A stretch of 64,000 nt of DNA from a virus. Lineage: Duplodnaviria; Caudoviricetes. Shown here in pieces: positions 11,801 through 64,000 of this stretch (position 1 is the first letter of the stretch; every line of letters starts with the position of its first letter). The notes below the pieces were generated by a model that saw only the letters and a program-made list of their open reading frames with translations, had not been told where the DNA came from and made no database searches. The DNA lies in IMG/VR virus record IMGVR_UViG_3300042282_000085. One strand, given 5' to 3'. Made by a program: the position numbers and the translations under genes.

Positions 11801-14034
11801 TACTGGACTCGGATGCACGTCTGGATGAGATGGACGGTGAAACCCGTGCGCTCTTCTTGAAGCGCGTGAAGATGGAACAGATACCACCAGGGCTCCATAC
11901 CCATCCCTATGAGGTCATGAATAGTCCCTATGGGGGCGAGAAATCCATCGCTAGCAAAGAAGACATCTACGCGTACATTGAGTTACTCGCCAAAGCTGAA
12001 GAGGTGGAAACCCCTGAGGTGGCTGGTGCCAGTGGTGAGATGAAGCGTGGTCTTCTGGCCAGTATCTGGGGCAAGGTAGCGGAAAAGGCTGAGGGAATAA
12101 AGGCAGGCGTCAGTGCCGCGATTGAGACTGTCCGTGAGAAGGGGGTTGTGGGTGCACTGGGAGATGCACTAACCAAAGCAGCGCCTGCAATCGCGAAGGC
12201 GATACCGGGTGCCGGTGCGGTTATGTACTTAGGTGGCAAAGCAGTAGAAGCCTTGCGTAAGGATACGGAGGTGGAGCCTATTGAGGGACTGAGGCTCTTG
12301 CAGTACGGTGTAAACCTCAAGGACCGTACCTTTGTAAAACGGGTGCGTGAGTTGGAGTTACTTGCACTGGATGCGGTCACCTGGGTAGGCAAGCGTGCAG
12401 AGATAACGGAAGATCCCGAGTATTTCTTTAAGCAGATGGCCGAGTCGATGGGACTGTCCTTTACCAATGAGGCGAATGCCAAAGCCTGGACCACGTGGTT
12501 TGCTAAACGCTTTACTCCGGTACTCCTTACACACCTCCAAACCCTTAAACTGCTGGATGAGATTCTGGAGCTTGAGGAGATCGATAAGCGCATGTCCGTA
12601 GAGATGAAAATTGAATATGTAAACCGTGTTCAATTCACTGCGAATGACATTGCGTCTGGGAAGGACCCCTATGCGATCACGGATAGCCCCATGTACGGTG
12701 TAGTCGTAGAGTCGCTCAGGGAAGTGATTGCCGTGTATACGAAACGTCTGCTGGATACATTAGCGACGGGTCGGATCAACAACAATCAGTCCTTCATGCC
12801 ACCTGAGGTGAAGGCGAACGATAAAGCTACAGAGGCCATTTCGCAGGCGAAGGAAACGCAACAGGCTATTAGCAAACAGCGCAGTGAGGAGGCTAAGTCC
12901 AAGGCGGGTAACAACAGTCCAGTGGAAACCGCCAATGGCATGGGCCGCTCAGAGATGGGTAGTGCCTCTAATGGCGATGCACCGGATGCGGATGGCAATA
13001 TGCCTGCAGGTGTACCGGATGCACCCAGTAACATGAAACCATCTGGAGATGGCAGCATGCTCATGCCTGCACAGGGACGTATTAGCTCTGCGTACGGTCG
13101 CCGCATGCATCCAACTCGAAAGGAGATGCACGGTCATGGGGGGATCGACATTGCTGCACCTACTGGTACGCCGGTGTACGCGGCAATGGATGGCACTATC
13201 TCTCGTCAGTACCGCAGCAGTAGTTACGGCAACGTTATCTACATTAACCACCCTGATGGTCGCGCTACGCGCTACGCTCACTTGAGTCGGTTTGCGGCAG
13301 GGACAGGGGCTGGCGCTGTTGTGAAGCAGGGCCAGATAATTGGGTATGTAGGGTCAACGGGTGTCTCTACCGGTCCTCACTTGCACTTTGAGGTGAGAGA
13401 AGGCCATGCACAGCGCTCACCCACGGCGGATCCAATGAAGTTTATTGGTCCGGCACGGGAAATGCTGGCTCAGCAAGAGAAGGAGGTCAAGGAAGCTGAG
13501 AAGGGTGATGATATTGGGGATCAAGACTTCTCCTTGGAGGGCGTTGATACCATCGCATCGACTACCCTGAAGAAGCCTGTATTGGCGGACGCAGGTATCT
13601 CCGACGATGACCCCAGTGTTAATGCAACGGCTAACAACGACCCTGTAGCGAGCGCATTGCCTGTTAGTCCTAAGGTAGGGCCCAGTGGAGTAGACGGTAC
13701 CCTAACGGCTCAGACAGGCGGTACGGCTAACCTGCCGGATGTAGGGGCAGGCGCTGCCGGTGTGGACGTGGAGCGTTTAGTTGGCGAGCAAACGAAGCAT
13801 GCCTCTGAAGCACAACGTCTACGTGAACGTCAGGTCATGACCCAAGAAGAAACCAATGCGAAGATGGACCGACTCATTGCCGCTATTGAAAACCAGCAAC
13901 CTCCTCAGGTGAACGTATCTGCAGGAGAACCCAGTCAGCCTAAAGGCACTAAACCTAATACGCCTGTTGGACGGCGTAAAGGGGATTCCCAAGGATCGGG
14001 ATATAACGGTGTCGTTGGATTTGACTATTCATAA
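5833..14034 (+). CDS. Giant tail protein (phiKZ gp181-like) with a C-terminal M23 metallopeptidase domain
   Basis: 2733 aa with AGGAGG RBS, divergent from beta' as gp181 is. N-terminal YQRKSLELQHRQYF and RRSIIEIIPGYLSRI motifs. M23 motifs HGGID, YAHL and TGPHLHFE at ~13130-13395. Confidence 0.85.
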   Translation: MAKYDDDVDFDIDALDDLDVPDIDIMPDDSAAADNRTPATRVADGALKSVLRTSTARTAARAIKENALPEGYSMAIDAADDALSLGQDLYDAAAKELEPAVKAAQKMLRKSQEKADKYLPKWLADTVKKLGGEAEEARQYVDPNESAIAGSLGSIFDKYREATAQTAATEANLTLEDKQRSVDRKIAIEQGDRQYNQLTSISEGISKLVGYQESVLFDYQRKSLELQHRQYFAARDLLTVTKAMADQNLHELKAVVKNTGLPEAVKLRLSEQYGQVATNQLIGRVQGSVHDFVANYTSEFRERAFKKITGAARDLKDGVLMGADMYEQMSEMGETMDEAGIDRARMAGEQLGAMGTSAAFKYGARLAGDRLVTRNKYQERSRLIKLLDPDNRLSSRAAKALEARIQQYEASGEPLDLQALTDKESYEDKRVGEEIAETISTSSGLFGGRKRKINAQFKRVLNASETVERGRFLRGADTMQYLIENAPKVANDWARSGRSVFDNVEVENETLQRLLESGGVQAVEDFIRELAPTFKESFSVNSNLHADAANAVGFDLLTRRSIIEIIPGYLSRILQQVTTVATGESAERITYSTEREQFVSQSTQDNIVASRLFDQRNVDNRLNDADAVTKLLGGENLDDDVKAALNRRILQLRDDGSTLSLNNLRKTSVAGEDEGLTAALETFLDSEDINFDSENKIKLSRLYDRITAMTRDVNQGLADTNKVADKETLYRLGIVDPKTGKVNAEKVRAYIDGRLRPGEGGEGPAPSADPSPLPAPGPDTAPIVGDTLTHEYLDLILDAITSGNSGTLTAIEGIQFDAADIGTHERLDTIASTLSEGFEGTYGRLDAITNKAGETGTFSNTVNYNTTSTVNWDDFTPQRKLLVEELFSQFTTLTSTYDGIPIAVDLRSEAPQGTLDASPTHERLDAILDAINGNFETNHVLLQAVAENAGRGGEGGDTVSVEEMGSGLLGKLRSGAGSLVGMLGSYYSWLGRTSLKTVQTAKDVALDVGNRVLKRTGATGVRDIYVKGKPGVVISAKGLRNGWYFDAETKAPIATMEDIQGPVVDLDGNFVLTQEDYDLGIEDRFGNTLIEAGKGLMRGLGSIYGAQFALMGAVLKAPMAVVQKVKDRFDGVKDVYVKGEGTPRMRALLMRNGGYISSRSQKVITHQGQIDGEVLDSKGNIVISLDDIETGLVDRWGISIEAKGLSGLLGGLAGRGLELGGKLLGKGAKLYGQYLKGVGKATAGIAGGIWGVAKEGGRRLAGGGGMSREEMMAMFREMQGGGAPELDPSERETLSLWQKLKDQNLTPDMLKSMDLDELKARIPDLNMDALNVGSMEELTAKLSEVGESVRQALTGNQMDIGSRKLLPVLIEQLNVQQGIYRHLTGESWSSSGTDIIRDSYDDILANDDNVSGLKDTVAKVTDNFAREVGKEDDEEGHRAGSWRDQRSQLTPEEVKVKEEEKKEEKEEKNSWLMDIIGSLGGLFMSGIGALGDKLMIAMGIKSAASTAGDVLDGVDALGNARGTPPGGRKPGLLGKSWNLLKRGAKGAGGLLKRGALAAAPLLASSKVGAAVLAGGAKLASGAAAIGGAIAAAPVGLIIGGAVAVGAAAYGGYKLWSHFRDNASLEPLEALRFMQYGIDTTDQEFIAHVRRIEREFIDDISWEGMRATFKGDQVEYFHEFGEDMGMDLNNMNDATEWQTWFVKRFGPILLTHLTVLKKIDEDVDVTDVDDELDPKYHADYIKRVQITADDVANGFNPYEWVASPFKGHEVRNMVEEISEYTEVLLKAAEAGNVEDVEVDSKGTFSTLVEGAKKVYGAVAKVVPGVALMGRVASGVHSAVSTVADTVREKGVLGAAKAGITAVAGSIPFIGGFFKKDEEEETQTSGKLAPNAKWTLLRMMMYGLGKDANPEAIKAVMALERKLGKDTASIRSSGELKVDRFKLYKEVAASFNRDPKDRNSQLVWIQWLTDRFAPAFTRYIHSLHAATGDDRLLDSDARLDEMDGETRALFLKRVKMEQIPPGLHTHPYEVMNSPYGGEKSIASKEDIYAYIELLAKAEEVETPEVAGASGEMKRGLLASIWGKVAEKAEGIKAGVSAAIETVREKGVVGALGDALTKAAPAIAKAIPGAGAVMYLGGKAVEALRKDTEVEPIEGLRLLQYGVNLKDRTFVKRVRELELLALDAVTWVGKRAEITEDPEYFFKQMAESMGLSFTNEANAKAWTTWFAKRFTPVLLTHLQTLKLLDEILELEEIDKRMSVEMKIEYVNRVQFTANDIASGKDPYAITDSPMYGVVVESLREVIAVYTKRLLDTLATGRINNNQSFMPPEVKANDKATEAISQAKETQQAISKQRSEEAKSKAGNNSPVETANGMGRSEMGSASNGDAPDADGNMPAGVPDAPSNMKPSGDGSMLMPAQGRISSAYGRRMHPTRKEMHGHGGIDIAAPTGTPVYAAMDGTISRQYRSSSYGNVIYINHPDGRATRYAHLSRFAAGTGAGAVVKQGQIIGYVGSTGVSTGPHLHFEVREGHAQRSPTADPMKFIGPAREMLAQQEKEVKEAEKGDDIGDQDFSLEGVDTIASTTLKKPVLADAGISDDDPSVNATANNDPVASALPVSPKVGPSGVDGTLTAQTGGTANLPDVGAGAAGVDVERLVGEQTKHASEAQRLRERQVMTQEETNAKMDRLIAAIENQQPPQVNVSAGEPSQPKGTKPNTPVGRRKGDSQGSGYNGVVGFDYS

Positions 14035-31187: not shown

Positions 31188-31330
31188 GTGTAGCCCTCAA
31201 TAGCTTTACTGAATTACGATTACGGATGGCAAGGTGTTAACGCGTGGGTCGGGTCCAATTCATCGAGGGTCCGTTGCAGGTCCCCAACAGTTATTATTTC
31301 CATTGCCTCAGTGTCACTCATGGCAACCCC

Positions 31331-31813
31331 TCACAGCTCAAAGGCAATGGCAGGGCTGTGTTCTCCCAACCAACGGGTGAAAGACTTCCTTACTAGGGCA
31401 TGTGCGGATGGAAGATACTCAGCGTCGTCAAAAATCACCACACTCACGCCATCGAACAGACGATGAAGTTCGTCCAAGTCGTTCCGATATAGTTTGCCGA
31501 TCTGTCGCCAAGTAAAGATTAGGTGGCCCTCGTCCAATGCGTCAACTCGGCTCAGAAGGGTTTGAACCTGGGTGGCATCTCGACAAATCAAGGCCACGTC
31601 GCTGCGGCGACCGATGACGTCCATGGCCCACGTGGACTTACCGGACTGACGGGGCAAACGGCTGCCGTAGGTGCGGAGCTCTTGAAAGAACCGACCGGGG
31701 TCGCCCATGGCGTGGCGAAGATCGAGTTCGCGATCGGTACCTATCAACTTTAGGGCGTGCTGTTCAGCGTGCGCCAGCGTTTGATTCAGCATCTCTTTGG
31801 TGGCTTCGTACAT
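31331..31813 (-). CDS. Small protein with terminase-ATPase-like Walker motifs
   Basis: RLPRQSGKST and VVIFDDAE in only 160 aa. Confidence 0.55.
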   Translation of the reverse strand: MYEATKEMLNQTLAHAEQHALKLIGTDRELDLRHAMGDPGRFFQELRTYGSRLPRQSGKSTWAMDVIGRRSDVALICRDATQVQTLLSRVDALDEGHLIFTWRQIGKLYRNDLDELHRLFDGVSVVIFDDAEYLPSAHALVRKSFTRWLGEHSPAIAFEL

Positions 31814-31834
31814 AGCTGCTTCCTTTTCATTGTT

Positions 31835-32041
31835 TTAAACTGGCTGTCCGTCGAGTACTTCCTGCTCATTGTAGACAGGTAGGCAATATCGACATTTCTT
31901 GGTTAGGCTATATGCCCAGGTTTTACCGCCATCTATTGTACATTTGTATCCGTAAACGGAGCGGGTACCTGTGCCTGTACGGTCACCCTTATCGGTGCCA
32001 TTTTCGATAACGTCGGCGGGTAGATCTGGATACTGTTGCAT
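31835..32041 (-). pseudogene. Truncated thyA-like 5' fragment fused to unrelated sequence
   Basis: First 31 aa ([31 protein letters not shown]) align with the ThyA N-terminus, then similarity ends. Confidence 0.7.
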
Positions 32042-32205
32042 TATTTACCCTTATGTTTATTAAAGTGGTCATTTGCGTATTCGATAACGTCAAATAAGGT
32101 ACCGGCAGGCAAGACTGCGCCTGCCTCAGTAAGATACTGGGTGGCAGCTAAATACCCCACCTTGTCTTTCGTAAAGGGCCACTCTGTGTGCTCGTTTACA
32201 TCCAT
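32041..32205 (-). CDS. Small hypothetical protein (54 aa)
   Basis: Below the ORF-track cutoff. MDVNEHTEWPF...HKGK*, with GAGGAG RBS and TAATG overlap with the next ORF. Confidence 0.5.
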   Translation of the reverse strand: MDVNEHTEWPFTKDKVGYLAATQYLTEAGAVLPAGTLFDVIEYANDHFNKHKGK

Positions 32206-32287
32206 CAGATATTCTCCTCACTCTATGGGATAGTCTCCTACCCTATAAAGAAAAAAATAAATGGCTAGGGGCCCTATGGCCCCTTCC

Positions 32288-32785
32288 TTATACGGATAAA
32301 GCAATATCGAACTTTATCCGTCCACGCTTCGTAACTACGGTACCGGTTACTTGACCCAGGTCCTTATCTACCACGATATCGCCACGCGAAACGGCTTGAT
32401 CAAATCCAAGTTTCAGGTTACGATGCACATCGTTCCCTTTAAGAACCTTAGAGACCGTAAAGGGCGATACGTCCAGAATACCAGCCAGGTCTATCTGAGA
32501 GATGCTGTACTCCTTACTCAGCGCGTGTACGACCGCCACAATAAGGGCGTCGGGGTGTTTATCTAAAGAGGTCGTCTCAACCGTAACATTATCAGTTGAC
32601 CCTACAATATCCTTTACCGCCTGCACATCACACTTCAGAGCATCGGCGATGTCTTCCACACTGACATTATGTGCCAGTGCCGCCTCCACCAAACGGTTAC
32701 GTTCACGCACCACGTCATGTACGCGACGACCGACACTGTAAAGTTCTTGTTTAAACTGCTGGCTCTGCAACATACTGTACTCCAT
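32288..32785 (-). CDS. Helix-turn-helix DNA-binding protein
   Basis: SVEDIADALKC and ISQIDLAGILDVSPFTVSKVL HTH-like segments. Confidence 0.6.
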   Translation of the reverse strand: MEYSMLQSQQFKQELYSVGRRVHDVVRERNRLVEAALAHNVSVEDIADALKCDVQAVKDIVGSTDNVTVETTSLDKHPDALIVAVVHALSKEYSISQIDLAGILDVSPFTVSKVLKGNDVHRNLKLGFDQAVSRGDIVVDKDLGQVTGTVVTKRGRIKFDIALSV

Positions 32786-33122
32786 TGTACCAGATTCGAT
32801 AAGGTTCTGGTCTTAATCCATATGGTTTTACAAATACGTACCCACCTTTCAAGGGACTTACGGTTACGCCTAAAGGATAAAGGGCCTCGCTTAAATTTTC
32901 AATTAACCCTCCCTTTAACGTTGTGCGCTTCAGCATAAACTTAAGGTCTTCTTTGGATAAGAAGGTGGTGGGTGATACTGGAGGCGCTGGGACACTTAGA
33001 AAGGTTTGTTGCCGTGCGAGTGCCTGAGATATTGCGGTTCTCTGGTAAATTCCCAGGGCACCGTCTAGAAAGACTAGCAACTCATCGAGCGGCGGCAAGT
33101 CACGCTTACTACTCATACTCAC
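32751..33122 (-). CDS. Hypothetical protein
   Basis: 123-aa ORF in the minus-strand operon. Confidence 0.5.
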   Translation of the reverse strand: MSMSSKRDLPPLDELLVFLDGALGIYQRTAISQALARQQTFLSVPAPPVSPTTFLSKEDLKFMLKRTTLKGGLIENLSEALYPLGVTVSPLKGGYVFVKPYGLRPEPYRIWYNGVQYVAEPAV

Positions 33123-33128
33123 GACCCT

Positions 33129-33395
33129 CTATTCGTTAGTGGGGTTAAGGGTATCGTACCACTCAGCACGAGCACCCTCTATAAAGTCCGGATGAATAGG
33201 AAATGCATCCGCCCGATGGATGCCCTCTGGGTTATCAGGAGAGGTAGACCGATCTACCTTTACAACTGCATAGCCAAGATCACTCCACCAGATATCGGTG
33301 ACTGTTATCGCGTCTCCGGCCTGGATATCATGACTATCCTTACCAGCAATCATTGTGACGGGGGGTAAAAGTTTCATAGTGGTATCCTCATTCAA
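33129..33395 (-). CDS. Hypothetical protein
   Basis: About 82-88 aa; likely ATG at 33377 with GAGG RBS. Confidence 0.55.
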   Translation of the reverse strand: MNEDTTMKLLPPVTMIAGKDSHDIQAGDAITVTDIWWSDLGYAVVKVDRSTSPDNPEGIHRADAFPIHPDFIEGARAEWYDTLNPTNE

Positions 33396-33404
33396 AATGG
33401 ATAG

Positions 33405-33440
33405 CCCTCCCTACCCTAGCCTAGGCTAGGGTAGGGAGGG
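33405..33440. repeat. Perfect 36-bp palindrome
   Basis: CCCTCCCTACCCTAGCCT|AGGCTAGGGTAGGGAGGG, intergenic. Confidence 0.9.
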
Positions 33441-33559
33441 TGAGCCTTTATCGGTACTGCGATTAAACAATCGCATTGTCCTCTTAGAAGGTGGCTCATT
33501 TAATCTAAACACAGTGTTAAAATTAATTAATACTCAAAATAACCCCACCTTAGTCGTGG

Positions 33560-34768
33560 TTAGTAAAGTCCCTCACTATAGAGTTCATTGCCCGACCCAC
33601 CATTGCGTTTAAAGTCAACGGGCTGACCAGCAGCTAGCGCCACCAGCAACGCCTCATGGCGATCCATGTACGTTTCCCATTGATCAATGAAGCCTTGTTC
33701 CCACTTACGATCATCCACGTAACCTAATTTAAGGTAGGCCTCTGCTTGAACGTGCATAGTGGGACAGAAGTGACGTGGGCCGACCAACATATAGTCACCG
33801 TTTCTACAGGCAGCACATACGACCTTACGCAGAGGCACTTCGGAAACAGACGCCTGTAGCGGTGCTGCGTACAGAACCACCTTAGCGGTCTTACGGTCCC
33901 GAACTCCCATCAGAAGCACAGGGTAGGGTAGGTCCTCCAAGGGCGATTCTTTACCACCAACCAATACAGGGGTGCGCTCTACTGGATAGCCTTTATCCAC
34001 CGTGTGACTATCCAAATTACAGTGGATGTGGTCCAATAGACCGATGGCTACTTTAAGGTTTACCACCGAGTAAATTCCCTTAACAACCTCTGTATGCGGT
34101 GTGTCATGCTGCACTGACCGCAGCTCATCCGGCAAGTCGCGATCATGCGGATCCAGCTCCATGAAACGCTGAAGCGCAGCCTTCAACTGATCCCGCTCTT
34201 GTTCTGCTTCAAAAAGGCGCTTAATTGATACAAGGTGCGTATCTGAAGCTACAACTTCACGCAATCGCTCCACCTCAGCCTGCAGCGGTGCCATGAGTGC
34301 CTCTGCAAACTCATACACATACGGGTTTAGGTCTTCGGATCCATGCGGCTGGGTTTTCAGTTTGAAGCCATTGGCCAGGACAAGTTCCTTGACCTGTTCA
34401 CGCTGCACCGTCTTTTCTCCTCTCCGGAAAGGCACTACCCAGCGACTGTAGCTCTTGGAGTAGTTGTACCAATTCCCATCGCCAAAGCACAGGCCCCAGG
34501 CGTTGTAGGAATTGTTCTCGGTAGAGGACCAGGCGTATTCAATAGACTGCACAGATGCTACAGTTCGGGCGTCGTAAAGTGCATCTAAGATCATCCTATC
34601 GGGCAATTCATACCCAAGCCCATGACAGTATGCCACACCCTCATGCCAATCACACTCTCTCCACAGTGACTGAGGGGCTACGGCCCAATACTCCGTATCC
34701 GTGATATGGAAAACAGTATCTCCGTTATCCAGCACTGCGCCAACCTCAATTGCATTGCTACTAGTCAT
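33560..34768 (-). CDS. Mosaic protein: N-terminal CLec-like DGR-target domain fused to unrelated phage modules
   Basis: Residues ~1-117 (GAVLDNGD..WAVAPQS..YC.GLGYELP..YAWSSTE..AW..WVVPFRR) are homologous to the C-terminal domains of 57902 and 59906; the remainder is unrelated. Confidence 0.75.
   Translation of the reverse strand: MTSSNAIEVGAVLDNGDTVFHITDTEYWAVAPQSLWRECDWHEGVAYCHGLGYELPDRMILDALYDARTVASVQSIEYAWSSTENNSYNAWGLCFGDGNWYNYSKSYSRWVVPFRRGEKTVQREQVKELVLANGFKLKTQPHGSEDLNPYVYEFAEALMAPLQAEVERLREVVASDTHLVSIKRLFEAEQERDQLKAALQRFMELDPHDRDLPDELRSVQHDTPHTEVVKGIYSVVNLKVAIGLLDHIHCNLDSHTVDKGYPVERTPVLVGGKESPLEDLPYPVLLMGVRDRKTAKVVLYAAPLQASVSEVPLRKVVCAACRNGDYMLVGPRHFCPTMHVQAEAYLKLGYVDDRKWEQGFIDQWETYMDRHEALLVALAAGQPVDFKRNGGSGNELYSEGLY
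34421..34537 (-). repeat. DGR-type variable repeat copy 3 (VR3)
   Basis: 117 bp, ungapped match to VR1/VR2 with differences only at codon positions 1/2. Confidence 0.85.
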
Positions 34769-34770
34769 AG

Positions 34771-35019
34771 TTAAGTCCTTCGTTTACCCATCGGTATAAT
34801 TGACCACCAACCTACCTTCACTACCATCGTAATCATCGTCACCTCAGCGATTACCATAATGAAGGAAAAGTAAAAGGCGGCTTTGTATTTGCCGCCCACT
34901 ACATTCTGGCTTTGAAACCCACGTATAAAGACATAGGTGAAAGTGGATAAAAGTTGAATGAGATAAGACATCACGCCCATCCTACTGTATAAGTGACACC
35001 GCTCTAAATTCTTGCGCAA
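34771..35019 (-). CDS. Small membrane protein, possibly truncated
   Basis: Two hydrophobic segments; ends abruptly IIPMGKRRT two nt before the next start. Confidence 0.5.
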   Translation of the reverse strand: MRKNLERCHLYSRMGVMSYLIQLLSTFTYVFIRGFQSQNVVGGKYKAAFYFSFIMVIAEVTMITMVVKVGWWSIIPMGKRRT

Positions 35020-35026
35020 TCTTTAA

Positions 35027-35299
35027 TCAATCTATCGATTTGAGATAGATTCCTTTACCCGGCAGAAAATAAATATGCTGATAGAGCGTAATCAGCGGCT
35101 CCAGGTCCAAATCAAAGTGGACGCTGTTATAGTGTCCCTCATACCCCTCCAGCGTTAGGTTGGTGGAACTATTGCCCATTTCTATGGCGGTAACACGACA
35201 GACGTCCCCCACCGCAACGGAGGCGGGTGGTGTACCGGCGGGCGTATCGTGTCTACTGATGCACTTGGTTTCAATGGGTCGATTCAATGTAAAGCGCAT
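35027..35299 (-). CDS. Hypothetical protein
   Basis: 90 aa with GAGG RBS. Confidence 0.6.
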   Translation of the reverse strand: MRFTLNRPIETKCISRHDTPAGTPPASVAVGDVCRVTAIEMGNSSTNLTLEGYEGHYNSVHFDLDLEPLITLYQHIYFLPGKGIYLKSID

Positions 35300-35323
35300 A
35301 TCGTACCTCTACGTGTCTTTCGG

Positions 35324-35863
35324 TTAAGGGTTAACGGTGATGTCGACAGTGTAGCAGCTCTCTGTGTGACTATGATGTTCACAGAAGCTCTGGGCGGTGG
35401 GTGAGTGGGTACCGTCACTGTAAAAACAGTTTGTACCACTGCCCTTACGAACCTCATATGCCAGCTGCACGGATTGAGTAAAGAAGCCCTCCACCGGATC
35501 GTTCGGTGTGGTCGGGGTGTTCAGCACGAGATAGCCTGATACTGGCGGTTTATAGGCAACAACCGCTGGATTGTTGACCTCCCAATAGAAGACTTCCCAA
35601 TACCCAAAGAGTGAATAGCCCATGCAGCGATACAGGTGTCGGTACACTTCACTGTTCTTACCGTGCCCCAACGCATGCAGCAGAGGAACAAGGTCGTTTA
35701 ATGACAGAGGTAACAGGGCGGCCTCTACCTCCGGATCAGGCATCCACCGCAGGGTGCCCTGCGGGTCTCGGATGATGGGGTGGTTGTGATGGGCCTCCGT
35801 CGCCATCATCTCCTGGTATTCTTCCGGCAGTGCCTCGCGTGGCACAATCTCGTAAGTACCCAT
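35324..35863 (-). CDS. Hypothetical protein
   Basis: 179 aa, TAATG-coupled to the upstream ORF. Confidence 0.6.
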   Translation of the reverse strand: MGTYEIVPREALPEEYQEMMATEAHHNHPIIRDPQGTLRWMPDPEVEAALLPLSLNDLVPLLHALGHGKNSEVYRHLYRCMGYSLFGYWEVFYWEVNNPAVVAYKPPVSGYLVLNTPTTPNDPVEGFFTQSVQLAYEVRKGSGTNCFYSDGTHSPTAQSFCEHHSHTESCYTVDITVNP

Positions 35864-36249
35864 TACTGTTCTCCCTTTTCACTACCTTTGGCAGTATGGA
35901 CGACGTAATCGACTATGTCCCCCATCGCCTTGGACCCCTTGAAGTGCCCGCCTGTATCCCTGCACATAGCAGCCCACTCCTCACACATCTGCCGCCAGTC
36001 CCCGGTACTCTGTGGCAGATAGAAGTCCTCCAGATTAGGGTTATCTTTAACAACCTCCCCATCTTTCACTACCATACGGTAGCGGGCCCAGCGGCTCACG
36101 GACACCGTAAATCCAGGGTTTTCTTTGGACAGCTCAATAAGAGCTTCCTTACTAATGTGGTCACAAAACCAATCCTTGTTACCGCCCCGATCTACGGGAT
36201 GTACTACCTCTATATGAAAACGACTGTTCAAATCTGAATACTCGGACAT
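35863..36249 (-). CDS. Hypothetical protein
   Basis: 128 aa with AGGAG RBS; first gene after an early promoter motif. Confidence 0.62.
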   Translation of the reverse strand: MSEYSDLNSRFHIEVVHPVDRGGNKDWFCDHISKEALIELSKENPGFTVSVSRWARYRMVVKDGEVVKDNPNLEDFYLPQSTGDWRQMCEEWAAMCRDTGGHFKGSKAMGDIVDYVVHTAKGSEKGEQ

Positions 36250-36414: not shown

Positions 36415-38241
<1,827 letters not shown>

Positions 38242-56096: not shown

Positions 56097-56927
56097 ATGT
56101 TTCAATTCGAGAACATCCAATTCAAGCGTGGTGATAAAGCCACGAACGATGCGTACGTAGGGAAACCCGGTACCATCTCCATCGACCGTGAGTCCATGAA
56201 CGTCCGTGTGCACGATGGTGTGACACCGGGCGGTTTATTCAGTGTAACCCGGGGCGCTGCCTTTGATGAGTTGGCGGCAGAGTTTATTGTTGCCAGCGAT
56301 AGCTTTACAGCGACCATGGGTCAAACCGTTTTTACCTTGACCAATGTAAGTCTGGAGAACCCAGACCGTGTGAAGGTTAAGATCAACGGCATGCAGACCA
56401 ACAACTGGGTGGTCAGTGGCGTTAACCGCATTACGGTGAACGACAGTATTCTGATCAACGACACCATTTTGATTTACCAGTACCGTACGCTGGATGATGT
56501 GGTCAGTGCAGCGGTTGAAGGTATGGACGTTGAGGCACTGCTAATTAGCATGCTGGAGTCTGTAACCAACATCGGTGGCATTAACATTGATGACATCCTA
56601 ACCGTTAACAGCACAGGTGCCTTTGAGCAGATGGTGGTGGATGCGATTGGTTCTGCTTTGGGTGAGTCGGGTAGCTTGGCTAACTTGGTAACCACAGACA
56701 CCTTGCAGTCTGCGATTAATGGCATAGACATTACGGCTGCTGTTCGTCGCGTACTGGACGGTATTCCTGATGTCGATTATCCGATTACCCATGTACTGAC
56801 TACTGCGGATAACATTGACCTAGGTCACATGGAGTTTGTCTTTGACGGTAACGAGTCTCTGGACCCCAGTGTCCCGAACGATACGCTGACTGTCTTTGAC
56901 CGCATTGACTTTGGTATCGTGAACTAA
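56097..56927 (+). CDS. Tail fibre protein with an Mtd-like N-terminal domain
   Basis: IQFKRG...YVGKPGTISID...VRVHDGVTPGG matches the Bordetella BPP-1 Mtd N-terminal pattern; no variable repeat. Confidence 0.7.
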   Translation: MFQFENIQFKRGDKATNDAYVGKPGTISIDRESMNVRVHDGVTPGGLFSVTRGAAFDELAAEFIVASDSFTATMGQTVFTLTNVSLENPDRVKVKINGMQTNNWVVSGVNRITVNDSILINDTILIYQYRTLDDVVSAAVEGMDVEALLISMLESVTNIGGINIDDILTVNSTGAFEQMVVDAIGSALGESGSLANLVTTDTLQSAINGIDITAAVRRVLDGIPDVDYPITHVLTTADNIDLGHMEFVFDGNESLDPSVPNDTLTVFDRIDFGIVN

Positions 56928-56945
56928 GGTTAGAGGTGACAATCG

Positions 56946-57398
56946 ATGGGATTTCTATATGAAGGTGAGGATATAGGGCGGTATATCGAAATCCGGGATG
57001 GCCGTGAAACGTTCGTGGTCACACGGGAGACCATTCGAGACGTTAAGGTAGTGCCTACCGATATCGTACTACCCGACCACTGGAAAGGTAAGGCCTTTTA
57101 CCGATTACGGATGGACTTTGATATTTTCGGTACGCTAATACCGAAGCACTACACCTCAGACGGTGCCAGTGTACCCAGGCTGTTCTGGTCCCTCTATCCG
57201 CCGGTAGGGCGCTACCTGTTAGCGGCCTTTTTGCATGATTGGAAATTGGACCAGCGTCATGGATGGGACGAATCAAACCGTGCCTTTGATGAAGCTATGC
57301 GTCACATCGGTATCGCGCGTCGCCGTCATTGGGTAATCATGCGCTCGGTTCAATTAAACGGGTGGGTACAATCCACCTTTTTTGGGGACCCTAAATAG
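56946..57398 (+). CDS. DUF1353-domain protein
   Basis: IP..YTSDGASVPRLFW...AAFLHDW. Confidence 0.8.
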   Translation: MGFLYEGEDIGRYIEIRDGRETFVVTRETIRDVKVVPTDIVLPDHWKGKAFYRLRMDFDIFGTLIPKHYTSDGASVPRLFWSLYPPVGRYLLAAFLHDWKLDQRHGWDESNRAFDEAMRHIGIARRRHWVIMRSVQLNGWVQSTFFGDPK

Positions 57399-57407
57399 GA
57401 GAGCTCA

Positions 57408-57773
57408 ATGAAACGACATATCGCAGGCTTCTTATTCGTCGCGGCTGTATCGTTGGTGTTACCCGCGTGCACTACATCCCAACCGGCTGTATTGGAAGAC
57501 GGGTACCAGCTCGGGGATGCCTCTAAAGTAGTCGCCGGGGAAGCTTTTAATTTAATGATGCTGCGGTACCGATATTGTTATACGTATGCCCCTGAGTCCA
57601 GGGACGCTATCCTGGAGATTATTCAGGCCTTCTATCCGGAGTATCCCACTGAAGGGATTTGTACGGATATGGGTGATCTGGTAAAGCAATTGAAGGGTGT
57701 GGATGCTACTACACTCGAAAAGGCATACGACCTACCGAAGGATATCGACCACGAGTCAAGTGGGTTAGAGTAA
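57408..57773 (+). CDS. Lipoprotein
   Basis: MKRH + hydrophobic core + LPAC lipobox; AGGAG RBS. Confidence 0.68.
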   Translation: MKRHIAGFLFVAAVSLVLPACTTSQPAVLEDGYQLGDASKVVAGEAFNLMMLRYRYCYTYAPESRDAILEIIQAFYPEYPTEGICTDMGDLVKQLKGVDATTLEKAYDLPKDIDHESSGLE

Positions 57774-57901
57774 AGGACACTAATTCACGTTTTACAGGGT
57801 GGCTCTACTGTAACCCTCTGACAGAAAATTGCAGTGGAGGAACTACCCTGCCGTTTTAAAATAGCCCCTTGATTAACCGTTAGTAACTGTAGGAAGGACT
57901 T

Positions 57902-58972
57902 ATGGCCTTAAAACAAATGAGCGGTGTGGTTACGTGGAAGCGCTTTACCACGAACAGCATCGAAACGTACTTGGGTAAGCCGGGTGAACCGATTGTCGAC
58001 ATGCGCACTGGTGAGCCGGCAATTCGTTTATGTGATGGATTGACACCGATGGGTCACCCAATTGGGGTTATTCCAACGTTGACTGGTGTGGCACGCCCTA
58101 TCATTATTAGCCCGGTTAATAATGCTACAGATGTCGATACCTCACCGGTGATTACTGCCAGTCAATTTAACGGCATTAACGGCGACGGCAGTATCCCAAC
58201 ACATGCGGCGACTATCTGGAACATTGCAACGGATGCCGCCTTTACCCAGATGACGTATAATAGTGGTGAAACGGCACTGAATAAAACGACACTGGATCTT
58301 TCCAGTGTAGGAGTAACACTGGAGCAAGGTAGTGTTTACTATATACGCGTAGCGTATAAGAGTGACAGTGGTGTGGTGTCCGACTGGAGTGCTACCGTTA
58401 AGATTACGACCAGTACTATGGGAATTGGCACAGTACTACCGGACGGTGGTATCGTTTTCGGTCAGGAAGGGGGCGACTGGCTGGTAGTAGCCCCGGCTTC
58501 ACAGCGTACGACTAAAATGTGGGGACTCTACGGTACCGATACCAGTCTTCCAAACTGGACGAGTGGCAGTGGGACTACTACTACCCCTACTGACCCTAAC
58601 TCATCAGAGTACAATACTGACGTACTGACGAGTCCTACTTATAACTCCATTAACGATGGACAGGGTAGTATCGGCTCACCCGCTGCAGAGTACTGCCGTA
58701 GTCTAGGGTACGACTTACCCAATGCGAGGGATCTGCAGCTTATTTACAATAATCGAGCTCAGATCGATGCAGCGGACTCTAGTGGAGGCGGTGCCACACT
58801 CTCCGCTATTCAATCTGGCACTGCACCCGGCTCCTCCACGACGTACGTCTGGTCCTCTACCGAGTACGGTTCCAACTTCGCCTGGTACCTGCTCTTTGGC
58901 AATGGGAATTGGTACAACATCAACAAGAACGTCAGTATCTGGGTAGTGCCTTTCCGGAGAATACCCGTTTAA
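57902..58972 (+). CDS. Mtd-like receptor-binding protein, DGR target 1
   Basis: Mtd-like N-terminus (WKR...YLGKPGEPIVD...LCDGLTPMG), Ig/FN3-like middle (YYIRVAY...SDWS) and C-terminal CLec-like domain ending YVWSSTE...AW...WVVPFRRIPV. Confidence 0.85.
   Translation: MALKQMSGVVTWKRFTTNSIETYLGKPGEPIVDMRTGEPAIRLCDGLTPMGHPIGVIPTLTGVARPIIISPVNNATDVDTSPVITASQFNGINGDGSIPTHAATIWNIATDAAFTQMTYNSGETALNKTTLDLSSVGVTLEQGSVYYIRVAYKSDSGVVSDWSATVKITTSTMGIGTVLPDGGIVFGQEGGDWLVVAPASQRTTKMWGLYGTDTSLPNWTSGSGTTTTPTDPNSSEYNTDVLTSPTYNSINDGQGSIGSPAAEYCRSLGYDLPNARDLQLIYNNRAQIDAADSSGGGATLSAIQSGTAPGSSTTYVWSSTEYGSNFAWYLLFGNGNWYNINKNVSIWVVPFRRIPV
58844..58960 (+). repeat. DGR-type variable repeat copy 1 (VR1)
   Basis: 17 differences to VR2 in 117 bp, none at a third codon position. 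Confidence 0.88.
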
Positions 58973-58982
58973 ACGGGTATTC
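58959..58982. other. Perfect 24-bp palindrome abutting VR1 (candidate DGR target hairpin)
   Basis: GAATACCCGTTT|AAACGGGTATTC. Confidence 0.7.
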
Positions 58983-59032
58983 ACTTTTAATACCGAGTCA
59001 CAGTGAGTGTCCTTTAAAGGACACTGCTTTTA

Positions 59033-59121
59033 GGGCTTGCCCTTTGTAGGGCTGCCCTTACTACCCTTACTCCATTTAAAAGCCCTACAGGCCACCCAGG
59101 CCCTTTGTAGGGACTGGGTCC
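59033..59121 (+). repeat. 89-bp structured non-coding repeat, copy A
   Basis: Matches 60925-61013 apart from a 10-nt central block and 2 substitutions; two CCCT-TTGT-AGGG stem-loops. Confidence 0.88.
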
Positions 59122-59158
59122 AAATTTACAATACTTCTTTCATAAAAGGATTATTCCA

Positions 59159-59839
59159 ATGAAATGTGAAATCATTCGTAATGGCAACACCATCGTTTCT
59201 GAGATGGACTTTAACGTAAACCGTGTACGTGACATTGTTGCCCGTCAGGGTGGCGATTACCGCCTCGTACCCAATGCTCTAACTGCTGCCATCCATATTG
59301 GCTCTATTCAGATCCTCCCAGTTAAATACGATATGCCAGTTACTACTCAGGCCCAGCGCTGCGGTAAGCCGGTACGTACCGTATCAGACTCACTGGTTAC
59401 CTACTCTTACCCGGTTGAAGAGAAAACCGAAGACGAGCTTCGCAATGAGCTTCTTACCCAGGTGTCCCGTATTCATGAAAGTTATGACAGCGGTCGTATG
59501 GAGTATCAGGGCGTCTCAATTGCGGTAGACCTGGAGGCCCGTGTCAATGCAGAAGGCGTACTCAAGCGTTTTGAGCGTGGTCTGATGTCGGCTACTCAGT
59601 GGAATGGTCAGGCGGTAACCTCAACCGATGAGAACGGTAATGAGGTCACTGGTCCTTCTAAGGTGGCCATTGGCTCTACCGCTGATATGCAGGCGCTGTA
59701 TGATGCAGTCTTTGCACACCTCGAAGCCGGTTTCATAGCTAAAGAAATGCTCAAAGCGGAGCTCGAATCTGCTGATGCCGTTACATTGGCGACTGTAGAC
59801 GTTAATGCGCGTTGGAATGAGATTGTAGAGACACTCTAA
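59159..59839 (+). CDS. Tail-fibre assembly/chaperone-like protein (DUF4376-like)
   Basis: MKCEII...DLEARVNA...QWNG...MQALYD; paralog of 54636..55292. Confidence 0.55.
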   Translation: MKCEIIRNGNTIVSEMDFNVNRVRDIVARQGGDYRLVPNALTAAIHIGSIQILPVKYDMPVTTQAQRCGKPVRTVSDSLVTYSYPVEEKTEDELRNELLTQVSRIHESYDSGRMEYQGVSIAVDLEARVNAEGVLKRFERGLMSATQWNGQAVTSTDENGNEVTGPSKVAIGSTADMQALYDAVFAHLEAGFIAKEMLKAELESADAVTLATVDVNARWNEIVETL

Positions 59840-59905
59840 GGTGTAACTAGTGATTAGGGGGTGGGTGCCCACCCCCTTTGTATACGGTTTATAGGAGCAT
59901 GTAAG

Positions 59906-60892
59906 ATGCCAGATTTACAATTGAAACGCGGTACACCGGCTCAGGTAGATGCCTATCAGGGGCCAGCGGGTGAAATCGTAGTCGATAGCCAGAACTGGAA
60001 TATGCGGCTACAGGACGGTGTTACAGCTGGTGGTGTATTACTAGGCAGTAACGAGAACCTGATTGCACGCCCTGAGATTTTGAGTCCCATTCAGGGTAGT
60101 GTCATTGGGGACCAGAGCCCTATTCTGGTTAGTACCGCGTATAGTGGGGAAGGGGTCCACAGTGCGAGTCAGTGGCAGATCAGTGGAGAGGTTGGGTTTG
60201 TAAACCTTATCCACGATAGCGGACGCAATACAGTTAGTCTATTGAGCTATAACTTACTGGATGCAGGTGTAACCTTGACCCGTGGGGTAACGCTGTACGT
60301 ACGGGTGCGTCACGAATCCGGTACTGCAGGCTGGAGTGAATGGAGTGAAGCACTAAGCTTCAGTGTACAGGCAATGGAGCCGGGTACTGTACTGGATGAC
60401 GGTGGCATTATATTTGCACAGGATGGTAATGATTGGCTCGTTGTAGCGCCTGCTAGTCTGCGTGCACTGAGAACCTGGAACGATGGGTCTACTAGTTGGG
60501 TAGACACCCCACTCCCTAACTATACTTCTAATCCAGAGCAAGACGTTAACGATGGTACTTACAATACGGATGTACTGGTTAACGTGACGCAGGAGCAGAA
60601 GGCCGCTACCTACTGCCGTTCTATCGGCTATGATTTGCCGAATGCGGCAGAGCTTCGTTTAATTTACAATAATCGAGCTCAGATCGATGCAGCAGATACC
60701 AGCGGAGGCGGGGCCACACTCTCCGCTATCCAATCCGGCACTGCACCCGGCTCCACCACGGCGTACGTCTGGTCCTCTACCGAGTACAATTCCTTCGTCG
60801 CCTGGGCCCTGTACTTTGGCAATGGGAATTGGTACGCCAGCATCAAGCACAACAGTGTCTGGGTAGTGCCTTTCCGGAGAATCCCAGTCTAA
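59906..60892 (+). CDS. Mtd-like receptor-binding protein, DGR target 2
   Basis: ATG 59906 with AGGAG RBS. LQLKRGT...YQGPAGEIVVD...LQDGVTAGG Mtd-like N-terminus; same architecture as 57902. Confidence 0.87.
   Translation: MPDLQLKRGTPAQVDAYQGPAGEIVVDSQNWNMRLQDGVTAGGVLLGSNENLIARPEILSPIQGSVIGDQSPILVSTAYSGEGVHSASQWQISGEVGFVNLIHDSGRNTVSLLSYNLLDAGVTLTRGVTLYVRVRHESGTAGWSEWSEALSFSVQAMEPGTVLDDGGIIFAQDGNDWLVVAPASLRALRTWNDGSTSWVDTPLPNYTSNPEQDVNDGTYNTDVLVNVTQEQKAATYCRSIGYDLPNAAELRLIYNNRAQIDAADTSGGGATLSAIQSGTAPGSTTAYVWSSTEYNSFVAWALYFGNGNWYASIKHNSVWVVPFRRIPV
60764..60880 (+). repeat. DGR-type variable repeat copy 2 (VR2)
   Basis: 117-bp ungapped homolog of VR1 and VR3. Confidence 0.88.
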
Positions 60893-60917
60893 TCGCCTTA
60901 AGGCGATGACTGGGATT
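60880..60917. other. Hairpin abutting VR2 (candidate DGR target hairpin)
   Basis: AATCCCAGTC-ta-ATCGCCTT|AAGGCGAT-GACTGGGATT. Confidence 0.7.
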
Positions 60918-60924
60918 TGCCTTT

Positions 60925-61013
60925 GGGCTTGCCCTTTGTAGGGCTGCCCTTACTACTTTGAGTACTTTTAAAAGCCGTACAGGCTACCCAGGCCCTTTGT
61001 AGGGACTGGGTCC
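60925..61013 (+). repeat. 89-bp structured non-coding repeat, copy B
   Basis: See copy A at 59033-59121. Confidence 0.88.
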
Positions 61014-61042
61014 TTTTCATTACGATATAGACTCACACCACA

Positions 61043-61084
61043 TACTCTTTAAGGCCTATCCTAGCGGATAGGCCTTAAAGAGTA
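61043..61084. terminator. 19-bp-stem inverted repeat
   Basis: TACTCTTTAAGGCCTATCC-TAGC-GGATAGGCCTTAAAGAGTA. Confidence 0.6.
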
Positions 61085-61182
61085 ATTTTCAGAGTGACTG
61101 GCGTGGGTCAAATCCTATAGCCTTGTAGCCGGTGCACTATAGTCACACGGCTGACACTCGTCACGATTATAGGACACCTACT

Positions 61183-62046
61183 ATGTCTGAACTATTAGAC
61201 CTTCGTTATCAATTTGACCCTACTGGTCACTCCACCGATAACCTTATTATCGATGAGCTACACACTGTTTCACAGTCGGGTCCCGCACTTATCATTCCAC
61301 GGGAAGGCCTGATGTACACTCCAGGCTTTACGGTGCGCCGGGCATCCTCTAACGTACCGCTTATCCAGAATACGGACTTCCACTTTATTTCTCTGGACGA
61401 ATTCATTACCGCAAAAACGGGTATTGAAACCGCCTCCGCGATTCAGTTTGATAAAGCTGAACACTTTGGCGACTTTGTAATCACCTACCAGGCTGTCGGT
61501 GGATATGAGGGGCGCTTTAACCGTCTGGTACAAGACCTAATCGATGCCATCGAGCGTGCTAAGGATGCTGACGTTGAATGGACTCGAGTTAAGAATAAAC
61601 CGGCTCAGTATCCTCCAGAGTACCATAACCATGAACTCATCTCCATTACTGGATGGGAGAAGTTTACGGTTAAGCTCCATGAATTAAAGGAGGCTATTAT
61701 CGATAGTCATTCCCTAGGTTCATCTGCACTCTCCCTTTCTCAAGCGGATTCGCGTATCCTAGCCCTCATTGCCGAGATGCAGCGGGAGATACAGTACCTG
61801 AATGGGGACATTGCGGATATCCTGGAGCGCATGAAGCGCTACATGGAGTTTGACATTGACTTTGGGGAGCTTGGTAAATTGCGAGAGTGGCCTGAGCGTG
61901 ACGTGTTCTACGTATCCTCAATTGACCTGCAAGAGAAGTCCAATCCCTTTATGGACTTTGGTGAGATTAAGGGTCCAGAACGCAATCAGTGGGATGATGT
62001 ACCGAATGTCAGCTCCTATGACATGGGTGAGCTTTCCAACAATTAA
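61183..62046 (+). CDS. Baseplate/tail-associated protein (FDPTG family) with three C-terminal D[FM]GE motifs
   Basis: YQFDPTG..DNLI.DE.H, YQAVGG and YPPEYH; ATG 61183 preferred over GTG 61132. Confidence 0.68.
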   Translation: MSELLDLRYQFDPTGHSTDNLIIDELHTVSQSGPALIIPREGLMYTPGFTVRRASSNVPLIQNTDFHFISLDEFITAKTGIETASAIQFDKAEHFGDFVITYQAVGGYEGRFNRLVQDLIDAIERAKDADVEWTRVKNKPAQYPPEYHNHELISITGWEKFTVKLHELKEAIIDSHSLGSSALSLSQADSRILALIAEMQREIQYLNGDIADILERMKRYMEFDIDFGELGKLREWPERDVFYVSSIDLQEKSNPFMDFGEIKGPERNQWDDVPNVSSYDMGELSNN

Positions 62047-62084
62047 CGGCATAAAACCTCAGAGCCCCGAAGGGCTCTGAGTCT

Positions 62085-62258
62085 TTACCGAGCATAGCGC
62101 AACTCTTTATTCAACTTCAGTAATTGACGCTTCGCCTTTTCCAGTCGGCGTTTCGCATCTTTTTCTTTATTTGAATGAGGAGTAGCCTCTGCCAATACTG
62201 CACTTGCTTCTCGAATGGCTTTTTCAGTATTGCGGATTTTGTTTTGCAGATCGATCAT
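62085..62258 (-). CDS. Small basic coiled-coil protein (57 aa)
   Basis: Below the cutoff. MIDLQNKIRNTEK...KELRYAR*, with AGGA RBS and a CTCAGAGCCC-CGAA-GGGCTCTGAG hairpin downstream. Confidence 0.5.
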   Translation of the reverse strand: MIDLQNKIRNTEKAIREASAVLAEATPHSNKEKDAKRRLEKAKRQLLKLNKELRYAR

Positions 62259-62267
62259 CGGGGGTCC

Positions 62268-62420
62268 TTATTCGCTATAGCCAAATGCGTTATTCGCCGC
62301 CATTAGACAGCGATAGAGTGTCTCGTTAGTCTCGGCAACCGAGCCTGATTCGATATGCAGTCCTAACGAAGGGAGTGTTTTGGTATCCAGACTTACGTCG
62401 TACATTGTCTTAGCCTCCAT
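62268..62420 (-). CDS. Small hypothetical protein (50 aa)
   Basis: MEAKTMYDVSL...FGYSE*, tandem with the 57-aa ORF. Confidence 0.4.
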   Translation of the reverse strand: MEAKTMYDVSLDTKTLPSLGLHIESGSVAETNETLYRCLMAANNAFGYSE

Positions 62421-62469
62421 GTTTAATCCATATCATACCGAGTACAATAATTCCTTAGGAGGAATCCTT

Positions 62470-63099
62470 ATGTCCACTAAACCGACTGTAGAAAACATCA
62501 TTTTAACCGTCATGGAAATTGAATCCGGACGTAAACTGATAGGCCAAAAGATTGATCCCAATGATACGAATGGGGGCTACACGAATGACCCCGACGATCC
62601 GGGCGGAGAGACTAATTGGGGTTGGACAGAAGGCACTCTTAAGGCCCACGGCATTAAAACGCATCCCCGTGACCTTACGTTCCAGCAAGCCTTTGACTAT
62701 TATAAGCGTATTTTCTGGACACGTTCGGGTGCGGAAGCGGTCTACGATTTTCAACCCTGGCTGGCCCGTACAATTTTTAATTACGGTGTGCACGCTGGAT
62801 ACCATAAGGCTGCACGTAACCTACAGACCCTTTTAAACCTCCATAATAACCAAGGCAAGCGTTGGGCAGACCTGATCGTTGATGGGGCGGTGGGTGCACG
62901 AACACTGGATGCACTGCAGGCCTACATCCGTATTCGCAAGGGGGAGATTGGTGAGGATGTACTCTTTACCGACTATGCGATTATGATGGGTGCTTTCTAC
63001 CAAGAGCTTGCCATTAAAAACGACCGTTATGAGAAGTATACGTATGGGTTCTCTACTCGTGCGATGTTAGAGCTGAAAGAATATTTTACTCGCAGTTAA
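62470..63099 (+). CDS. Glycoside hydrolase family 108 endolysin with a peptidoglycan-binding domain
   Basis: GGYTNDPDDPGGETNWG, LQ..LN, LIVDGAVGARTL and EKYTYGF..R; ATG 62470 with AGGAGG RBS. Confidence 0.88.
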   Translation: MSTKPTVENIILTVMEIESGRKLIGQKIDPNDTNGGYTNDPDDPGGETNWGWTEGTLKAHGIKTHPRDLTFQQAFDYYKRIFWTRSGAEAVYDFQPWLARTIFNYGVHAGYHKAARNLQTLLNLHNNQGKRWADLIVDGAVGARTLDALQAYIRIRKGEIGEDVLFTDYAIMMGAFYQELAIKNDRYEKYTYGFSTRAMLELKEYFTRS

Positions 63100-63128
63100 C
63101 CACAGGTCTATGTAATGAGGATTGGAGT

Positions 63129-63740
63129 ATGCGCAAGGATCACTCGATACAGCGGTACTATACCGGCATAGGGTCCCGTCAGGCCCCTGCATGGGCACAA
63201 ACCCTTGCTACTGAGATAGCCGCTAAGCTCTCTGCTACACACGTTCTACGCCACGGGGATGCCAGTGGCATGGATGAGGCCTTTAGTCAGGGATCGGCCG
63301 GGAGAGAGGAGATATGGGCCCCCTGGAAGGGGTTCCGTAAAGACGAGCGCTCTTCCATTACCCGACAGCGCATCCAATCCCCTGCACAGCAGATCGAATC
63401 GGGCAACATGCTTATTCGAGAAGGCATCTGCCCGCACTTCTTTAACATGAAGCCCTCTATTCAGGCACTCTTTGCCCGTAACGTGTTTCAGATTACTGGT
63501 CAGCGTTCTGAGATGGGTGAGTGTGATCCCCTATCGGATTTTGTCGTCTATTGGGCACCAGAAAACACTAAGGGTGTCATATCCGGAGGTACTCGAATAG
63601 CTGTTTACCTGGCCCGCAGTATGGGAATTCCTACCTACAACCTTGACATTAAATCTCAACGTGATGAAATTCTAGACCACCTTGACATTCAATATGTAGA
63701 GGATGATGACTGGTACTCCGCACCATATTTAACAGTATAA
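63129..63740 (+). CDS. DprA/SMF-like (SLOG superfamily) protein
   Basis: YTGIGSR, LRHGDASGMDEAF, RNVFQI and GGTRIAV..A....IPTYNL. Confidence 0.78.
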   Translation: MRKDHSIQRYYTGIGSRQAPAWAQTLATEIAAKLSATHVLRHGDASGMDEAFSQGSAGREEIWAPWKGFRKDERSSITRQRIQSPAQQIESGNMLIREGICPHFFNMKPSIQALFARNVFQITGQRSEMGECDPLSDFVVYWAPENTKGVISGGTRIAVYLARSMGIPTYNLDIKSQRDEILDHLDIQYVEDDDWYSAPYLTV

Positions 63741-63815
63741 ACTATCCCCGTCCATTTTGGACGGGGATATCCATATATGCTGTAATCGGCATAGGTCAAG
63801 CGATAGACCGGTTAC

Positions 63816-64000
63816 TTAGCCTGTCGTGGATGTGTTCCCAGCTTCCTCTAGCGCGCTCACACGACTAATTAGTGACTGAATGGTAGCTGACATATCCGCA
63901 AGGTCACTGTTTAGATTAGACGCCGCGGTTTCTAACGAATTTACCTTATCCGATAGTGCCACTAACCCATCGGCAACATCTTTAACCCTACTATCCAGCT
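63816..64000 (-). CDS. C-terminal end of a coiled-coil protein (partial)
   Basis: ...LDSRVKDVADGLVALSDKVNSLE...ISRVSALEEAGNTSTTG*, with a hairpin at 63744-63768 downstream. Confidence 0.55.
   Translation of the reverse strand, partial: LDSRVKDVADGLVALSDKVNSLETAASNLNSDLADMSATIQSLISRVSALEEAGNTSTTG

Follow-up and report, generated by a model that had tools for sequence, protein, structure and literature searches.

What process could vary 14 codons of a repeated coding segment and leave every third codon position untouched? This question is raised by three in-frame copies of a 117-nt (39-codon) segment in a 64,000-nt stretch of DNA from a virus (Duplodnaviria; Caudoviricetes; IMG/VR virus record IMGVR_UViG_3300042282_000085), which is referred to here as the window. 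Our computational analysis leads us to consider it very probable that the three copies are the variable repeats (VRs) of one trans-acting multi-target diversity-generating retroelement (DGR) in a phiKZ-like jumbo phage. An earlier reading of the window from its letters alone (the sequence-only reading) had reported the copies and ascribed them to a DGR with one template. Sequence matches confirmed them at the coordinates it gave, in frame in all three; mismatches are counted against the template repeat (TR) described below.

58844..58960, + strand: VR_a, C-terminus of tail target a; 14 mismatches to the TR, 14/14 at TR adenines
60764..60880, + strand: VR_b, C-terminus of tail target b; 17 mismatches to the TR, 17/17 at adenines
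34421..34537, - strand: VR_c, residues 78-116 of a 402-aa protein, hence internal; 16 mismatches to the TR, 15/16 at adenines

A scripted count across the three copies found variation in 14 codons and 25 columns and in no third position, in agreement with the 14 codons and the fixed third positions described before. The 21-nt 3' end of the repeat occurs exactly three times in the window (0.00 expected from shuffles), as does the 15-nt block at its 5' end (0.15 expected). Comparison of the tail paralogs over the 150 nt 5' of the repeat gave 28 differing sites, with 18 at third positions. The boundaries of the repeat are therefore sharp, as had been claimed, but the claimed 5' end has to be moved: TR homology of VR_a begins at about 58836, some 8-9 nt further 5'. 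Sensitive blastn and tblastn searches detected no fourth copy, TR or reverse transcriptase (RT) within the window, in line with the sequence-only reading.

The template was found in two relatives. The record nearest to the window, G001 (IMG/VR uncultivated virus genome (UViG) 3300042255_000023; 195,544 bp; CheckV completeness 71%), is collinear with the whole window at ~92% identity (window 1-64000 corresponds to G001 140808-79324, reversed) and contains 11 copies of the repeat. The other, L038, is a sister contig (JGI 3300042284) that encodes exactly P0006, a 445-aa cassette-type target. In G001 the cassette follows the order target, Avd-like open reading frame (ORF), TR and RT.

G001 175632-175748: cassette VR, C-terminal in a 431-aa target
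G001 176558-176674: TR, AAC-rich, 16 AAY codons
L038 3985-4101: cassette VR
L038 4305-4745: Avd-like ORF
L038 4913-5029: TR
L038 5038-6171: RT, intact

The AAC-rich TR in both genomes is the adenine-rich copy at the variable sites that the sequence-only reading had proposed to look for. The two TRs are identical at 117/117 positions between flanks of 88% identity, and TR and VR of the L038 cassette differ by 13 mismatches, all at adenines, at an offset of 928 nt. The RT ORF of G001 (377 aa) begins 8 nt past the TR and matches RVT_1 (E 1.7e-18). The RT aligned over its full length to the 328-aa chain 8ub7_A (E 7.5e-31), which was taken as the RT of phage BPP-1 (Brt) because its aligned residues match those of the annotated Brt; the L038 RT shares 30% identity with annotated BPP-1 Brt (E 3e-36). 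Both the DGR-type PIGxLxSQ motif and the YxDD box, here YVDD, are kept. The proposed search for a DGR-class RT and an Avd gene thus returned the RT beside the TR, together with an Avd-like ORF of 146-157 aa between target and TR whose position and size are consistent with Avd and whose profile matches are weighed below. A PDB sequence search with the Avd-like protein returned no informative match. The Avd-like gene and the TR are ~160 nt of non-coding sequence apart (L012 6559-6684; L038 4745-5038), and the TR ends ~8 nt ahead of the RT ORF, so that a spacer or a priming structure in the RNA, if there is one, has to share sequence with the RT gene or precede the TR. An exact scan of IMG/VR with a 38-mer of the TR returned G001 only, a blastn search of 50,697 phage records with the VR region gave no match, and neither the RT ORFs nor window target c had an exact entry in the protein collection with the start codons chosen.

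Adenines occupy 40 of the 117 TR positions, and 46 of the 47 mismatches between the window VRs and the TR of G001 and L038 fall on them (binomial p 1.1e-20). In the actual template 13 of the 14 variable codons are AAY. Moreover, the template that had been deduced from the VRs alone fits the TR of the relatives at every position when compared by eye, its ambiguity codes being G, G, A and G. The adenine-specific mismatches and the TR beside an RT both support the DGR reading with one template for three VRs. A different account would be gene conversion among paralogous lectin-domain genes together with diversifying selection on contact residues, without any reverse transcription. It would agree with the finding that all targets belong to one paralogous domain family. 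We consider it highly improbable, since every variable site corresponds to an adenine in one non-coding copy ~8 nt upstream of the RT, and since synonymous third positions are frozen between otherwise unrelated flanks.

Comparison with close relatives revealed where recent change has occurred. From 56562 to 64000 (7.4 kb) the window is identical to G001 save for 42 differences, all of which lie in VR_a (18) and VR_b (24). They fall on TR adenines in 40 of 42 cases (p 8.7e-17), and for VR_b in 24/24. This restriction of changes to 117 nt inside 7.4 kb of identity also speaks against gene conversion. Similar results were obtained for public metagenome contigs, on which target b occurs in 6 full-length variants and target a in 7. 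Most of them have an invariant stretch of the first ~285-310 residues and change only at AAY-templated VR positions. Five of the 6 target b variants are identical outside the VR, P0028 having four further changes; the three most divergent target variants (P0028, P0033 and P0034) carry a few extra substitutions beyond the VR. The target a variants P0030 and P0032 are a single VR residue apart. Orthologs of VR_c (window, G001, L024 and L025) diverge pairwise by 38-58% at template-A sites, by 5-9% at non-A VR sites and by 21-60% in upstream coding DNA, which is what repeated homogenization to the TR followed by A-mutagenesis would give. In a scan of the collection the 21-nt VR end occurred in G001, a viral contig of 23 kb and an ENA metagenome contig, and the latter two both carry VR_c orthologs. 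Third-position and non-adenine changes among relatives, which the sequence-only reading had named as the pattern that would favor gene conversion, were almost lacking; variation sits at the template-A sites of the VRs. These sequence comparisons argue that the element is active, or very recently was.

The same data bear on a frozen footprint, that is, past writing by a DGR whose RT or TR has since been lost or broken, with the three VRs now fixed alleles. The lack of TR and RT in the window would fit such a relic, and six degenerate VR-like copies in G001 indicate that targets do decay. In these six the 3' end is mutated and 3-20 non-A changes are present in each; judged by their sequence, they would be relics or never-targeted paralogs. 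On the other side, 0 changes outside and 42 inside the VRs over 7.4 kb point to very recent rewriting in at least one lineage, and variants such as P0030 and P0032 appear stepwise. Besides, the RT ORF is intact in G001 and L038, and the TR is perfectly conserved between flanks that are 88% identical. The TR-RT sequence is also placed in the window's own genome by an index match: the TR and the start of the RT of L038 have 133/165 index words in common with that genome, 34.6 kb before the window start, and synteny with G001 predicts the cassette ~35.7 kb before it. The exact target proteins of the window, and P0006, occur on metagenome contigs of up to 155,597 bp. On this basis we take the window's phage to carry the cassette, ~35 kb ahead of the window start, and consider a frozen footprint improbable, if somewhat less so than gene conversion.

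The elements of the window that may take part in target recognition are the 3' end of the VR, here compared with the initiation of mutagenic homing (IMH) site, and two hairpins.

58939..58960, + strand: IMH-like invariant 3' end of the VR, 22 nt; also at 60859-60880 (+) and 34421-34442 (-)
58959..58982, + strand: perfect hairpin, 10-bp stem and 4-nt loop, directly abutting VR_a; z -3.08
60880..60917, + strand: longer hairpin with a sequence unlike that after VR_a, directly abutting VR_b; z -5.07

The TR and all clean VRs agree in every base of the 22-nt 3' block, and its three adenines never vary. The hairpin of VR_a recurs after the cassette-adjacent VR in G001. A hairpin or cruciform near the VR serves as recognition element in BPP-1. 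By analogy, the hairpins of VR_a and VR_b may be candidate cruciform target-recognition elements; alternatively, they may be terminators.

Several observations weigh against the reading as a single DGR. VR_c has one non-adenine mismatch to the TR (T5C), and it is not followed by a comparable hairpin (z 0.06; nor is the TR, z -0.27). In G001, the copies at 84364, 106771, 108976, 73 and 109362 have the non-A pair T54C/G55A in common (Phe-Ser for Phe-Gly), which is found neither in the TR nor in any window VR; with this pair included, non-A differences number 2 in the copy at 84364 and 4 in that at 106771. The shared pair suggests exchange from paralog to paralog, as gene conversion would have it, so that some such conversion or an older TR allele probably contributed as well. 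The Avd-like ORF matches the profiles NF033474 DivGenRetAVD (E 8.5e-7; 29 bits, cut-off 80) and Pfam bAvd (E 8e-4), both under the curated cut-offs, and BLASTP of its product against bAvd gave no similarity. Finally, TR and RT were read in the relatives G001 and L038, whereas for the window's own genome the cassette is supported by the word-index match, a limit that leaves some room for a frozen footprint. Both alternatives, gene conversion with selection and the frozen relic, were rejected for the reasons given above.

By analogy with BPP-1, the proposed DGR would act as follows. The AAC-rich template of 117-125 nt (16 AAY codons) would be transcribed, and the DGR RT with Avd would make a complementary DNA (cDNA), misincorporating opposite template adenines. 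This cDNA would replace each VR, anchored by the invariant 3' end and, at the two tail genes, probably assisted by the hairpins next to the VRs. As a result, 13-16 codons would be randomized in the ligand-binding face of a DUF1566/Lcl_C lectin-like domain. This domain would be diversified in two Mtd-like tail-fibre candidates, one non-tail protein and the cassette-adjacent target outside the window. The three target genes of the window are as follows.

57902..58972, + strand: target gene a, 356 aa; Mtd-like tail-fibre/receptor-binding candidate; C-terminal Lcl_C/DUF1566 (E 3.9e-4); phrog_4245
59861..60892, + strand: target gene b, 343-aa ORF, called as 328 aa from ATG 59906; Mtd_N, FN3-like and Lcl_C-like domains
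33560..34768, - strand: target gene c, 402 aa; at the N-terminus a minimal domain of DUF1566-like type that ends in the VR, fused to ~285 aa; phrog_839 and phrog_5217 (function unknown PHROGs)

Target b matched the profiles Mtd_N (E 1.2e-3) and Lcl_C (E 6.6e-6), and its N-terminus shares 38% identity over 47 aa with that of BPP-1 Mtd. Its AlphaFold2 (AF2) model (predicted local distance difference test (pLDDT) 89.9) has an Mtd_N-like N-terminus, an FN3-like middle and a C-terminal domain of the Lcl type. The top Foldseek matches of the model were BPP-1 Mtd variants, and the C-terminal domain superposed on the Legionella Lcl C-terminal domain 8q4e with Z 12.5 and a root-mean-square deviation of 2.8 (117/131 aligned); a PDB sequence search with target b gave nothing useful. 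We take Lcl_C to be a member of the CLec superfamily. In the modeled fold the VR encodes the predicted ligand-binding end of the lectin-like domain (DUF1566/Lcl_C). Genes around targets a and b match tail-fibre and virion PHROGs, and because of these neighbors both targets are probably receptor-binding fibres. Target c lies 24 kb from the tail targets on the opposite strand, among replication and early genes, and adjoins a DNA ligase gene (36415-38205). At G001 104.6-109.5 kb (L011 4659-9515) there are six small stand-alone DUF1566 proteins with mostly decayed VR-like ends. The corresponding stretch of the window, 31191-35974, holds a single DUF1566 copy fused to a C-terminal extension and is the least conserved stretch in comparison with G001.

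The element resembles the DGR of BPP-1 (mtd-avd-TR-brt) in many respects. Both have the gene order target, avd (here an Avd-like ORF), TR and RT, a full-length RT alignment at 30% identity with PIGxLxSQ and YxDD common to both, and adenine-specific mutagenesis on AAY codons. Likewise, in both an invariant VR 3' end is followed by a hairpin, and Mtd, whose N-terminal type recurs in the target, is the best Foldseek match. An asymmetry between IMH and IMH* is not definable for the 3' ends of the window VRs and the TR. In contrast, the DGR of BPP-1 serves one target (the annotated VR2 is a separate repeat region) in a temperate podophage of 42 kb, whereas in the phiKZ-like jumbo phage clean VRs number at least four per genome; they occupy both strands, the farthest lying ~94 kb from the TR in G001 coordinates. 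The VR domain of this phage is of the Lcl_C/DUF1566 type and not of the Mtd CLec sequence family, the gap from TR to RT ORF is ~8 nt instead of 144 nt in BPP-1, and its Avd-like protein resembles bAvd at the level of hidden Markov models only.

Multi-target DGRs have been described in bacteria such as Treponema denticola, Legionella and cyanobacteria, where one TR and RT serve several remote VRs in trans. Their targets are paralogous lectin-fold domains, and DUF1566/Lcl_C is recurrent among DGR targets. These elements reside in the chromosomes of cells and diversify surface lipoproteins or signaling proteins; unlike them, the element analyzed here is viral and two of its targets are tail-fibre-like.

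The closest RTs (44-60% identity) were found on the IMG/VR contigs L016-L021, which derive from ordinary-sized phages (24-94 kb) and have the same layout of VR, TR and RT with the TR abutting the RT. Four of these six loci (L016, L017, L018 and L020) are clean, their TR/VR mismatches falling on adenines in 13/14, 10/10, 11/11 and 18/19 cases; their TRs are homologous and encode the same WSST/NAW/NNNNK/W-V-P-R-R type of domain tip. The L021 pair has 7/11 mismatches at adenines, and L019 offers a truncated pair only. In contrast to the window's phage, each retrieved locus has one TR/VR pair, and no phiKZ-type RNA polymerase (RNAP) was found in L016-L020, the five contigs searched. Judged by these sequences, the cassette was probably acquired horizontally from a pool of the L016-L021 type, and the VR domain then spread to extra genes.

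The phage type is indicated by several genes. The window encodes split RNAP beta pieces (phrog_3148 and phrog_2986) and a helicase whose best matches are phiKZ-like jumbo phages (Noxifer, LucasX and PhiPA3; 40-45% identity). G001 contains, in phiKZ order, homologs of phiKZ gp055, 071, 073, 074 and 080, which are subunits of the non-virion (nvRNAP) and virion (vRNAP) polymerases, and of both phiKZ DNA polymerases. A homolog of PhuZ (phiKZ gp039) lies at 187.4-188.5 kb of G001 (E 6.6e-22), outside the stretch equivalent to the window. G001 measures 195,544 bp at 71% completeness, and related contigs reach up to 199,512 bp. On split RNAPs, PhuZ and synteny, we assign the phage to the phiKZ-like jumbo phages, as the sequence-only reading did. 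Chimallin (phiKZ gp054) was not matched in G001 or the window by genome search and tblastn, but the slot where its gene would be expected coincides with the two ends of the G001 contig (1-200 and 194.8-195.5 kb), which separate the homologs of gp052 and gp055. A VR-like copy (73-189) stands at the contig start. Assembly was probably interrupted at the dispersed repeat, with the chimallin slot not included. To call the phage nucleus-forming is therefore an inference.

Earlier work has met DGRs chiefly in temperate phages and in bacteria. Among 224 jumbo phages surveyed, no DGR-type FGS lectin domains were reported (PMC7824862), and recent reviews of jumbo or nucleus-forming phages leave RTs and DGRs unmentioned (PMC13282480, PMC12625630, PMC7162821). 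The large metagenomic DGR catalogues (PMC8144416, PMC8241571) may include such cases without singling them out. The sequence-only reading knew of no DGR in a phiKZ-like jumbo phage, and our literature search likewise found no paper describing one. Neither the mechanism nor the cassette departs from the canonical form, and DGRs with several targets are already known; what we did not find described is the host lineage as a context. That the DGR works in an obligately lytic, nucleus-forming chimallivirus, diversifying fibre tips and a non-structural early-region protein in each infection cycle, is a tentative proposal that we consider rather unlikely. If it were true, the chimallin shell would have to let RT-Avd and template RNA or cDNA through to the phage DNA that it encloses, and the route of mutagenic retrohoming to DNA sequestered in a phage nucleus becomes a testable question. 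Target c and the stand-alone DUF1566 family of G001 would then point to roles of a DGR other than the binding of receptors, such as providing variable proteins that bind host or defence factors. A working element would indicate that lytic jumbo phages are capable of programmed hypermutation for host-range plasticity, which bears on their ecology and on phage-therapy candidates of this family. Moreover, one TR with VRs that have a hairpin, lack it or are decayed offers natural material for the rules of target recognition.

Some further features of the window were noted. Just 3' of the tail-target block, at 62380-63740, lie an endolysin-like ORF (phrog_315) and a DprA-like ORF (phrog_768). A giant ORF of 2733 aa (5833-14034) adjoins the RNAP genes. 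Between the two RNAP beta pieces, a 1.3-kb segment (2951-4252) carries an HNH endonuclease ORF (2958-4202; phrog_59). The segment is missing from G001, where its flanks are contiguous, and it looks like a presence/absence polymorphism of a mobile intron or homing endonuclease.

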